Source of the DNA: Escherichia coli | GTDB taxonomy: Bacteria > Pseudomonadota > Gammaproteobacteria > Enterobacterales > Enterobacteriaceae | NCBI RefSeq assembly: GCF_003334385.1 | Contig: NZ_QOWN01000108.1 | Direction: 5' to 3' (one strand) | DNA: 1,818 nucleotides | Part shown: in pieces, positions 1-1,818 of the stretch | Layout of the letters: each line of letters begins with the position of its first letter | How positions within the stretch are numbered: position 1 is the first letter of the stretch | Position numbers and translations under genes: made by a program | The notes under the pieces: model-generated | What the model saw: the letters and a program-made list of their open reading frames with translations, nothing else | The model's database searches: none | What the model was told of the DNA's origin: nothing

Positions 1-632
1 GCCTGCCGGGGCAGCAGTATGATGAGGAGTCCGGCCTGTATTACAACCGCCACCGCTATTATGACCCGCTGCAGGGGAGGTATATCACTCAGGATCCGAT
101 TGGGCTGAAGGGGGGATGGAATTTTTATCAGTATCCGCTGAATCCGGTTCAGTATATAGATTCAATGGGACTGGCATCAAAATATGGACACTTAAATAAT
201 GGCGGATATGGAGCGAGACCCAACAAACCGCCTACGCCCGATCCAAGTAAATTGCCGGACATAGCGAAACAATTAAGACTGCCATATCCTATTGACCAGG
301 CCAGTAGTGCGCCTAATGTTTTCAAAACATTCTTCAGAGCATTAAGCCCTTACGACTACACACTGTATTGCAGGAAGTGGGTAAAACCAAATCTGACTTG
401 TACGCCACAGGATGATTCCCAGTATCCAGGGATGGATACAAAGACAGCAAGTGATTACCTGCCACAGACAAATTGGCCAACAACTCAATTACCACCAGGA
501 TATACTTGTGCAGAACCCTATTTATTCCCAGACATTAATAAACCCGATGGGCCAGCAACAGCAGGGATAGATGATTTGGGTGAAATTTTAGCTAAGATGA
601 AACAGAGAACATCGAGAGGAATAAGAAAATGA
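1..632 (+). CDS. Rhs-family polymorphic toxin, 3' end (5'-partial; codons in phase from position 3): conserved Rhs core terminus plus variable C-terminal toxin (CT) domain; stop TGA 630-632
   Basis: The frame is open from the window start to 632. Translation begins [57 protein letters not shown], which matches the conserved terminal block of the RHS repeat-associated core domain (E. coli RhsA-type cores end ...[30 protein letters not shown]...NP....DPLGL). The ATG at 165 given by the ORF track is internal (Met inside the demarcation motif), not the true start. Whether this is a full-length rhs or an orphan fragment (possibly ybfO/rhsO of E. coli K-12) cannot be decided from the window. Confidence 0.9.
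54..173 (+). other. Rhs core C-terminal signature block, ending in the core/CT demarcation motif [10 protein letters not shown] (144-173), a variant of the canonical PxxxxDPxGL
   Basis: Direct translation: [40 protein letters not shown]. Established knowledge: in Rhs/YD-repeat toxins the PxxxxDPxGL motif marks the end of the conserved core and the start of the variable toxin domain. Confidence 0.85.
174..629 (+). other. Variable C-terminal toxin (CT) domain of the Rhs protein, about 152 aa, activity unknown
   Basis: Sequence after DSMGL: [42 protein letters not shown]...[22 protein letters not shown]. It is proline-rich, has 3 Cys, and shows no HNH, HxxD, deaminase or other catalytic motif I can recognise by eye. 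Hand-counted GC is about 42% in 241-300, against about 59% in 1-120. Confidence 0.7.
614..619 (+). promoter_or_regulatory. Ribosome-binding site for the immunity gene, located inside the 3' end of the toxin ORF
   Basis: AGAGGA at 614-619, 9 nt before ATG 629. Confidence 0.6.
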
Positions 633-685
633 AAAGAGTTTTGTTCTTTTTGCTGATGATATTTGTTAGTTTTGGTGTTATAGCT
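629..685 (+). other. Predicted Sec signal peptide (19 aa) of the immunity protein; alternatively an uncleaved N-terminal membrane anchor
   Basis: [19 protein letters not shown] followed by DCEIQA. There is no lipobox (no L-x-[GAS]-C; an Asp separates Ala from Cys), so it is not a lipoprotein signal. Confidence 0.55.
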
Positions 686-1198
686 GATTGCGAAATACAA
701 GCTAAAGATCATGATTGTTTTACTATTTTCGCTAAGGGTACTATTTTTTCCGCGTTTCCTGTCTTAAATAATAAAGCCATGTGGAGATGGTATCAGAATG
801 AGGACATCGGTGAGTATTATTGGCAAACAGAACTGGGTACATGTAAAAATAATAAATTCACACCAAGCGGGGCGAGACTCTTAATTCGCGTCGGGTCACT
901 ACGCCTTAATGAAAATCATGCCATCAAAGGAACGTTGCAGGAGTTGATAAATACAGCAGAAAAAACGGCGTTTCTCGGCGATCGGTTTAGAAGTTATATA
1001 AGAGCGGGTATCTATCAAAAAAAGAGCAGTGATCCAGTTCAGTTGTTGGCAGTCCTTGATAATTCAATCATGGTAAAATATTTTAAAGATGAGAAACCAA
1101 CTTATGCTCGAATGACAGCACATCTCCCGAACAAAAATGAGTCTTACGAATGTTTAATAAAGATACAGCATGAACTAATTCGTAGTGAAGAGAAATAA
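629..1198 (+). CDS. ybfC: Putative Rhs immunity protein (RhsI-like), 189 aa, with N-terminal signal-peptide-like segment; uncharacterised
   Basis: ATG at 629 overlaps the toxin stop (ATGA, 629-632). A Shine-Dalgarno-like AGAGGA lies at 614-619, 9 nt upstream of the ATG. The N-terminus [22 protein letters not shown] has a basic n-region, hydrophobic core and V-x-A before the predicted cleavage site. Position immediately 3' of an Rhs CT domain is the canonical immunity-gene location. Hand-counted GC is about 30% in 631-720. The symbol ybfC is a tentative recollection of the E. coli K-12 189-aa YbfC downstream of ybfO and needs BLAST confirmation. Confidence 0.85.
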
Positions 1199-1357
1199 AA
1201 TCTCTTCCTGAGAAAACAAATTAATCATTGTGAAAAATTATATAACTCATGGAATAGGTGTTTATTTTGCGTTCCATTTGCAGGGAAAGATCACGTAACG
1301 CTACTTTTTTGTACTAAATAATTCGAATTTTAAGTTCAACAATTGAGATACTACTTA

Positions 1358-1388
1358 TTGTCTAAAGCTGTTTTTCATAGCTTATACA
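1358..1388 (+). promoter_or_regulatory. Candidate sigma70-like promoter for the H-rpt ORF (speculative)
   Basis: TTGTCT (1358-1363) and TATACA (1383-1388) each match consensus at 4/6, with a long 19-nt spacer, about 36 nt upstream of the ATG. In copy 2 the -35-like hexamer reads TTACCT. This is weak and unverified. Confidence 0.2.
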
Positions 1389-1413
1389 TGATCAAATACT
1401 CCTTACATAAATA

Positions 1414-1418
1414 AGGTG
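1414..1418 (+). promoter_or_regulatory. Ribosome-binding site for the H-rpt fragment ORF
   Basis: AAGGTG, 5 nt upstream of ATG 1424; the same sequence recurs at 1794-1798 before ATG 1804. Confidence 0.55.
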
Positions 1419-1423
1419 AACAA

Positions 1424-1678
1424 ATGGAACTTAAAAAATTGATGGAACATATTTCTATTACACCCGATTACAGACAAGCCTGGAAAGTGGTGCATAAATT
1501 GTCAGATATTCTACTGTTGACTATTTGTGCCGTTATTTCTGGTGCAGAAGGTTGGGAAGATATAGAGGATTTTGGGGAAACACATCTCGATTTTTTGAAG
1601 CAATATGGTGATTTTGAAAATGGTATTCCTGTTCACGATACCATTGCCAGAGTTGTATCCCAGGGAAAGATCACGTAA
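1424..1678 (+). pseudogene. ybfQ: Truncated H-rpt transposase N-terminal fragment (84 aa: 79 native codons plus 5 junction-derived codons QGKIT, then TAA)
   Basis: ORF 1424-1678 with RBS AAGGTG at 1414-1418. The last five codons are read from the leader of the second element copy. The symbol ybfQ is a tentative recollection of the 84-aa H-rpt fragment next to ybfC in E. coli K-12. Confidence 0.75.
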
Positions 1679-1818
1679 CGCTACTTTTTTGTACTAAATA
1701 ATTCGCATTTTATGTTTAAAAATTGAGATATTCCTTATTACCTAAAGCTGTTTTTCATAGCTTATACATGATCAAATACTCCTTACATAAATAAGGTGAA
1801 CAAATGGAACTTAAAAAA
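1661..1818 (+). mobile_element. H-rpt element 5' end, copy 2 (leader plus start codon), continuing beyond the window
   Basis: 1661-1818 aligns base for base with 1281-1438, with 8 mismatches in 158 nt by hand alignment, all between 1326 and 1361. Confidence 0.8.
1661..1818 (+). repeat. Direct repeat, copy B (158 bp, truncated by the window end), partner of 1281-1438
   Basis: Hand alignment at offset 380; the repeat probably extends beyond the window. Confidence 0.9.
1804..1818 (+). CDS. 5' start of a second H-rpt (ISAs1-family) transposase gene, 3'-partial; only MELKK is visible
   Basis: ATGGAACTTAAAAAA is identical to the start of ORF 1424, with the same upstream RBS (AAGGTG at 1794-1798). 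Intactness downstream is unknown. Confidence 0.6.

Follow-up and report, generated by a model that had tools for sequence, protein, structure and literature searches.

Organization of the RhsC 3′ end

The stretch of DNA analysed here (the window, 1,818 nt) is the 3′ end of the RhsC locus of Escherichia coli K-12 and was found to be 100% identical to K-12-type chromosomes. The RefSeq annotation of an identical K-12-type record gives the gene order rhsC-ybfB-orphan tip-ybfC-ybfQ-ybfL-ybfD-ybgA, and this annotation together with repeat analysis placed three H-rpt copies in tandem (C1-C2-C3) between ybfC and ybgA, downstream of rhsC. We take these copies to be H-rptC1, H-rptC2 and H-rptC3 of the K-12 RhsC element, whose description by Hill and co-workers reportedly dates from the early 1990s; the window is that locus, with no difference in kind. 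The features of the window are listed below.

1..632, + strand: 3′ end of an orphan Rhs C-terminal tip (ybfO pseudogene), from the RefSeq annotation of the identical record; the ORF ends at 632
629..1198, + strand: ybfC, 189 aa, with a 4-nt overlap with the stop of the Rhs tip
1281..1660, + strand: H-rptC1 (ybfQ), a 380-bp 5′ fragment of an ISAs1-family element, element positions 1-380; blastn against H-rptB covers 1-381
1326..1361, + strand: the patch, element positions 46-81, between the terminal inverted repeat and the candidate promoter
1372..1400, + strand: candidate sigma-70 promoter TTTTCA-17-AATACT of the C1 leader (PMC3946193), the same in both copies
1424..1678, + strand: ybfQ ORF, 84 aa; transposase codons 1-79, then read-through into the C2 left end
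1661..1818, + strand: left end of H-rptC2 (ybfL), 158 bp, cut by the window end; from annotation and inverted repeats
1706..1741, + strand: counterpart of the patch in C2, equal to the family consensus (same as H-rptC3, H-rptB and H-rptE)
1752..1780, + strand: second copy of TTTTCA-17-AATACT, in the C2 leader, by sequence match

The stop of the Rhs tip overlaps the start of ybfC in the tetranucleotide ATGA at 629-632. The N-terminus of YbfC carries a hydrophobic signal-like segment with a cysteine at its end, as expected of a partner protein of an Rhs toxin tip. H-rptC1 opens with the left end CAGGGAAAGATCACG and stops exactly at the start of the C2 left end, and a Shine-Dalgarno-like AAGGTG is present at 1412-1417 ahead of ybfQ. 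In the genome, H-rptC2 is 1,290 bp long; it has both inverted repeats and an internal stop, and is annotated as an ISAs1 transposase. H-rptC3 (ybfD) lacks its first 24 bp and has an internal deletion; it begins at element position 25, directly after the right end of C2. Both ybfQ and ybfL are pseudogenes.

Assignment of H-rpt to the ISAs1 family

The H-rpt transposase matched NF033564, the full-length ybfC-adjacent copy of NT1F34 scoring 417.8 bits (cut-off 70). The 84-aa ybfQ fragment scored 65.1 bits over profile positions 1-51, and it fell under the cut-off solely because it is truncated. H-rptB and H-rptE are 1,291 bp each with ends matching at 10/11 positions, and the C2 ends CAGGGAAAGATCACG and CAGGGAAAGATTACG match at 14/15. 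An element length of ~1.29 kb and terminal inverted repeats CAGGGAAAGAT...ATCTTTCCCTG likewise agree with the ISAs1 family (ISEc1 group), from which C1 differs in being a 380-bp left-end fragment only, with no right end. The median number of matching places for H-rpt was 8 per E. coli genome. No direct repeats were seen flanking B, E or C2; these copies are old and possibly rearranged, so that this absence is uninformative. According to one paper, H-rpt transposition has not been observed (PMC3032704).

Distribution of mismatches between the C1 and C2 leaders

Copy 1 (1281-1438) and copy 2 (1661-1818) could be aligned without gaps over 158 nt, and exactly eight mismatches were obtained, at 1326, 1333, 1337, 1340, 1351, 1353, 1360 and 1361 (1706-1741 in copy 2). 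They comprise four transitions and four transversions, with no indels. A first-pass annotation of this DNA had stated that the 45 nt before and the 77 nt after the patch are identical between the copies, and this was found to be so. It had further described the divergence as confined to the 36-bp patch, which holds true for the leader but not for the repeat, since 14 more mismatches lie past the window end. In the genome, the C1/C2 homology covers 380 bp at 94.2% identity, with eight mismatches at element positions 46-81, none at 82-180 and the 14 further ones at 181-362. Copy 2 is cut by the window end, and the apparent confinement is thus partly a window-edge effect.

That uniform drift simply happened to put eight differences close together is scarcely credible to us. 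It is true that the window end exaggerates the confinement, as the mismatches in the coding part make clear, but the p-values, although modest and partly post hoc, argue against it: eight mismatches randomly placed in 158 nt span 36 nt or less with p ~1e-4, and scan statistics over the 380 bp gave P = 0.02 for at least eight mismatches in a 36-nt window, P = 0.024 for an identical run of at least 99 nt and 0.0017 for cluster and run jointly. A comparison of 8/36 mismatches in the patch with 0/144 in the identical flanks gave a Fisher p of 1.3e-6, and 8/8 changes fell on one lineage, as described below. The heterogeneity is significant both in the window and over the 380 bp, which bears out the earlier statement that the pattern is not one of uniform drift.

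Past the window end, C2 has a private cluster of its own, with seven substitutions in 53 nt at element positions 195-247 (L001:9855-9907). This cluster includes the internal stop (T195), and C1 equals the family consensus there except at one position. At the last four C1/C2 differences (270-362), the C2 haplotype is common to other copies.

The patch is a private haplotype of H-rptC1

To see which copy deviates in the patch, the leaders of five K-12 copies, namely C1, C2, C3, H-rptB (yhhI) and H-rptE (ydcC), were aligned. It is clear from the alignment that C2, C3, H-rptB and H-rptE are the same throughout the patch and that C1 alone deviates, at 8/8 sites, with the haplotype A46 A53 C57 C60 C71 A73 G80 T81. 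The patch is a private haplotype of this one copy. As C1 alone differs and the others agree, it is neither a variable region of the whole family nor a sub-family marker. The flanks gave a different picture, with the sub-terminal CGTAACGCTAC as well as C96, A99, A131, T137 and a 1-nt deletion at 142, before the ATG, common to C1 and C2 and absent from C3, B and E; A23 is a further rare flank marker of the two copies. Mismatches spread uniformly over other H-rpt copies had been named at first pass as the outcome that would speak against patchy divergence, and this was found in part: the differences of the other copies from C1/C2 were spread along the leader, but none of them fell within the patch.

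An H-rpt copy beside ybgA in E. whittamii, at roughly the same site, was found to carry flanks of the C1/C2 type and a consensus patch except for C57. Against C2, C3, B, E and this E. whittamii copy, all eight differences polarise to C1. The eight states are not equally private. C57 is the usual state in E. whittamii and Escherichia sp. MOD1-EC7003; some of those Escherichia copies also have C60 and G80, as does plasmid pNJS001-2 in a copy that is 73% identical; two other haplotypes have T81, and a single Citrobacter copy has C71. Among the E. coli, metagenome and plasmid samples, A46, A53, C71 and A73 were restricted to C1, and A46, A53 and A73 were found in no other sequence sampled. Of the eight C1 states, four are also found as polymorphic variants in the unselected sample, as against 19 of 108 possible changes (p = 0.037, again a modest and partly post hoc value). 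On these sequence comparisons, the mild excess of shared states would fit a partly old patch better than eight fresh random mutations.

Several H-rpt copies of Escherichia sp. MOD1-EC7003 (L010:2939-3100, L011:1-200 and 776-861) are internally deleted; in these, the first ~86 bp, reaching to just past the patch region, are joined to element position ~864 onward.

Distribution of the C1 patch

A 44-nt query comprising only the patch found a match in 2,658 of 5,426 complete E. coli genomes, at a median of one place per genome and a maximum of two, and at 99% identity or more in 2,635 genomes. The sampled C1 haplotypes always adjoin ybfC, and the full eight-state haplotype is kept in ~97% of the genomes with a ybfC-adjacent H-rpt. 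When a synthetic query made of the ybfC flank and a C2-type leader was used, 76 genomes matched at 99% or more, having a consensus patch beside ybfC. These data show that the C1 haplotype is a single-locus allele, carried as a block of eight states by about half of all E. coli genomes.

A scan of metagenomes was anchored on the start codon, and was thus unselected for the patch. It covered 120 loci with 82 distinct leader-plus-5′-coding haplotypes, and the C1 patch was present only with the ybfC flank TTCCATTTG, being absent from the 74 other distinct leader haplotypes. The first-pass annotation had offered sub-family differences as one possible source of the divergence; with a haplotype that occurs about once per genome, in 0/74 other leader haplotypes, and with C2, C3, B and E alike in the patch, this idea had to be dropped.

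The whole C1 patch was not found elsewhere among the 5,426 E. coli genomes, 72,556 plasmid records, the 120 metagenome loci and the GTDB species representatives, the last being scanned as one genome per species with a degenerate pattern, so that this part of the result is pattern-limited. Specific candidates for a donor were also rejected. Outside the species, the C1 haplotype occurred only on E. coli-like contigs within mislabelled MAGs. Among the plasmid records, all matches at 99-100% were chromosome-sized records filed as plasmids; the next-best leader was 90.7% identical, and no intermediate was present in these records. The K-12 relic yncI, a 67%-identical ISAs1 relative, was considered as a source of the clustered changes, and its states do not match.

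With regard to the mislabelled MAGs, E. coli contigs of RhsC, RhsB or RhsE (L005-L007, L017, L018) were encountered in bins labelled Flavobacterium psychrophilum, Bacillota and Candidatus Nanosynbacter. Over the window flank, L007 equals K-12 and L018 is 98.4% identical there. These contigs are probably contamination of the bins.

Recombination among H-rpt copies

Several natural isolates were found to carry rearranged forms of the tandem. In NT1F34 there is one full-length copy; it has the C1 patch, and its coding markers are those of C1 as far as ~272 and those of C2 beyond. In SF4-1, C2 markers lie downstream of the C1 patch in a copy that is also fused to C3. These are C1/C2 and C1/C3 crossover products. 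In FORC 064, C1 is wholly lost and C2 adjoins ybfC.

Shorter exchanges were seen within the patch itself. LD93-1 has a left-half patch, with C1 states at 46-60 and consensus at 71-81, and NCTC9967 has the same form (exact 100-nt match). EC2 and ws5-3 show the reverse, a right-half patch only, and HCP30S3_I2 likewise (exact 100-nt match). CRE1540 retains seven of the eight C1 states, while the patch of PSS-13 is fully consensus. In LD93-1, EC2, ws5-3, CRE1540 and PSS-13, the variant patch lies within a 380-bp C1 that keeps most or all C1 coding markers. The downstream C2 is normal in LD93-1 and EC2 and has mixed or C3-type 3′ markers in CRE1540 and ws5-3; in the C2 of PSS-13 (L024:4462-4500), element positions 33-152, that is, most of the leader, are deleted. 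Left-only and right-only forms cannot both lie on one stepwise mutational path, and thus at least some of them are conversion products.

The metagenome leaders were also mosaic, one and the same chromosomal site having different segment haplotypes in different strains. At the RhsE-linked site with flank GTTAAACA, the ribosome-binding-site segment was either E-type or C1/C2-type, varying by metagenome sample, with AATTAAGGAGAACAAAATG or the C1/C2-type AAATAAGGTGAACAAATG ahead of the start codon. Judged from these segment sequences, the variants indicate that H-rpt copies undergo conversion even when they lie at distant loci. The other source suggested at first pass, gene conversion within the H-rpt family, is in general supported by the shared rare flank markers, the mosaic leaders and the half-patches. 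Together, these forms show that recombination among the copies is active, and that it includes short conversion tracts ending inside the patch.

One might then suppose that conversion acted on the patch and not on its flanks, C1 having received these 36 bp from an unsampled or lost ISAs1 element of divergent sequence. Such an import would be in keeping with the short-tract conversion that demonstrably acts on the patch segment and with the mosaic nature of H-rpt leaders in general. Yet it calls for a donor that is 22% divergent in the patch but identical in the flanks, which is implausible; no donor turned up in any collection searched, and the next-best leader after C2 was just 90.7% identical. 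We regard an imported tract as unlikely.

A partial-patch match in HNSQ2209 (L145, ~2000-3000) proved to be no recombinant: an IS903B copy interrupts its C1 leader at the patch. Other strains, in which the window match comes in two parts, have an annotated IS903B beneath it, and IS1 or ISKpn26 is present nearby in further strains.

Promoter and RNA-folding analysis of the two leaders

As the first-pass annotation had noted, the hexamer at 1358-1363 reads TTGTCT in copy 1 and TTACCT in copy 2. It was, on the other hand, mistaken in calling no other hexamer -35-like: eight in the C1 leader match TTGACA at four or more of the six positions, including a TTGAGA (5/6) that is common to both leaders. 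TTGTCT can be paired only with TATACA, over a 19-nt spacer and with 8/12 matches. A consensus scan (16-18 nt spacing, at least 9/12 matches) found no sigma-70-like promoter on the + strand of either leader. Among the constitutive promoters listed from genomic SELEX with the RpoD holoenzyme, one is placed in the ybfC-ybfQ spacer, and TTTTCA-17-AATACT was proposed for it (PMC3946193). This sequence falls within the identical 77 bp and, with 8/12 matches, under the threshold of our scan. The sole promoter-like site of the scan was TAAACA-16-TATAAT (10/12) at 1264-1237 on the minus strand, in the spacer between ybfC and H-rpt and directed toward ybfC.

In the predicted RNA, T53A and T57C together make the stretch 1328-1337 fully (10/10) complementary to codons 2-4 at 1427-1436, and the helix 1328-1337/1427-1436 is present in the minimum-free-energy fold of C1 only. 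Other patch changes create the small palindromes AATTCGAATT and CAATTG. The leaders nevertheless folded no better than their shuffles (z = -0.48 and +0.25), and 56-67% of random sets of eight substitutions gave an equal or lower folding energy. A search of 8 kb on either side found no local template of 11 nt or more for the patch, and there was no Rfam match at E <= 1. A templated or quasi-palindrome origin and an mRNA fold-back were both rejected, the self-complementarity being no better than chance and the folds no better than shuffles.

Complementarity to the start region was seen at other places as well. The 16 nt just outside the C1 left end (1265-1280) are 88% complementary to the ribosome-binding-site/start-codon region 1421-1436 (and 1801-1816), with a perfect match between GTTCCATTTG and CAAATGGAAC inside this pairing. 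In H-rptB, the B/E-type sub-terminal left end pairs with the ribosome-binding-site/start region in the predicted fold. Such pairings are reminiscent of a fold-back block to read-through translation, but the folding z-scores are not significant.

A selected regulatory divergence, in which the patch alters a promoter, a site for transposase or a host factor, or the mRNA structure, so that ybfQ is expressed unlike ybfL, would draw on several of these observations: A80G makes the TTG of TTGTCT, the complement to codons 2-4 appears in the C1 fold only, RpoD holoenzyme binds the ybfC-ybfQ spacer in SELEX (PMC3946193), and the patch is near-invariant across the 2,635 genomes. We consider it quite unlikely all the same. 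No + strand promoter was predicted in either leader, TTGTCT has no well-spaced -10 while seven other hexamers fit the -35 consensus at least as well, and the SELEX candidate sits in the identical region; furthermore, the folds do not exceed shuffles or random mutants, such invariance is ordinary within E. coli, and both genes are pseudogenes. The first-pass annotation had supposed that the copies might differ in expression, which is possible, although the sequence does not suggest it.

Truncated transposases act as inhibitors in other insertion sequences. By analogy, the patch could be a selected change setting the expression of ybfQ, whose 84-aa fragment would be a domesticated DNA-binding inhibitor of H-rpt transposition or recombination. 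If true, this would explain why the eight-state haplotype is kept in ~97% of the genomes with a ybfC-adjacent H-rpt; we hold it to be very improbable.

Origin of the patch

Taken together, these results make it most likely that recombination between the repeats left the patch behind. More specifically, the reading that we favour as on balance probable is that the patch is an island whose history is separate from that of the leader around it, the rest of the leader having been homogenised with C2 by gene conversion. The two copies, both defective, lie side by side, and recombination or gene conversion between them would account for the identity of their leaders over element positions 1-45 and 82-180. 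The intervening 36 bp would have escaped homogenisation and retained the haplotype private to C1. The recurrence of C57, C60 and G80 in distant H-rpt lineages suggests that the patch is partly old sequence. From what is generally known of homology-dependent recombination, the mismatches of the patch may themselves impede exchange across it. As to the direction of events, we infer that the flanks were homogenised rather than the patch changed. There is no need to invoke a function: C1 and C2 are both pseudogenes, and their leaders do not differ in the best candidate promoter, the ribosome-binding site or the start codon.

The main weakness of this reading is that the collections searched hold no second sequence with the C1 haplotype. 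In addition, H-rpt leaders typically differ by much less than the 22% seen over these 36 bp, and the escape of the patch from homogenisation therefore needs an old or unusual ancestor.

With no donor found, a rival reading is clustered mutation on C1, by which the leaders would be identical by descent and the eight substitutions would have arisen through one multi-nucleotide event or local hypermutation. This is a possible, if rather unlikely, course of events. It would agree with the polarisation of all eight differences to C1, the four states seen in C1 only in the E. coli, metagenome and plasmid samples, the inheritance of the block of eight in 2,635 genomes and the empty donor search. Against it, there are no indels and no mutational signature among the four transitions and four transversions; self-complementarity did not rise beyond chance, which speaks against templated quasi-palindrome mutation, and no local template of the length searched for lies within 8 kb on either side. 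Moreover, three to four of the states match distant H-rpt lineages.

Significance and comparison with known systems

The locus and the process are both already well known, and the patch has little importance outside the RhsC H-rpt locus. No mention of a 36-bp island private to C1 was found in the searchable literature. With the island taken as the remnant of incomplete homogenisation, as we prefer, it is an instructive case of pseudogenised insertion-sequence copies in which sharp islands of divergence are left by gene conversion, and it carries the lesson that a short window can exaggerate how confined divergence looks. In practical terms, the patch is a unique tag by which reads or probes can be assigned to H-rptC1/ybfQ over the other near-identical H-rpt leaders, and in E. 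coli the half-patch variants provide naturally occurring marks of conversion over short tracts.

In IS10 and IS50, transposase translation is inhibited by fold-back. H-rpt likewise has upstream sequence complementary to the start region (1265-1280; 1328-1337 in C1; the left end of H-rptB). However, its folding energies are no better than those of shuffles and random mutants, and the likeness is thus a resemblance only, unsupported as a mechanism.

The closer parallel is with the mosaics left by ectopic gene conversion among IS copies, rRNA genes and Rhs core repeats. The C1 island differs from these in being unusually divergent (8/36) and without an identifiable source. In other respects H-rpt behaves as they do: diverged islands interrupt the tracts of identity, neighbouring copies have rare markers in common, and both tandem crossover deletions and short conversion tracts are found in natural isolates.
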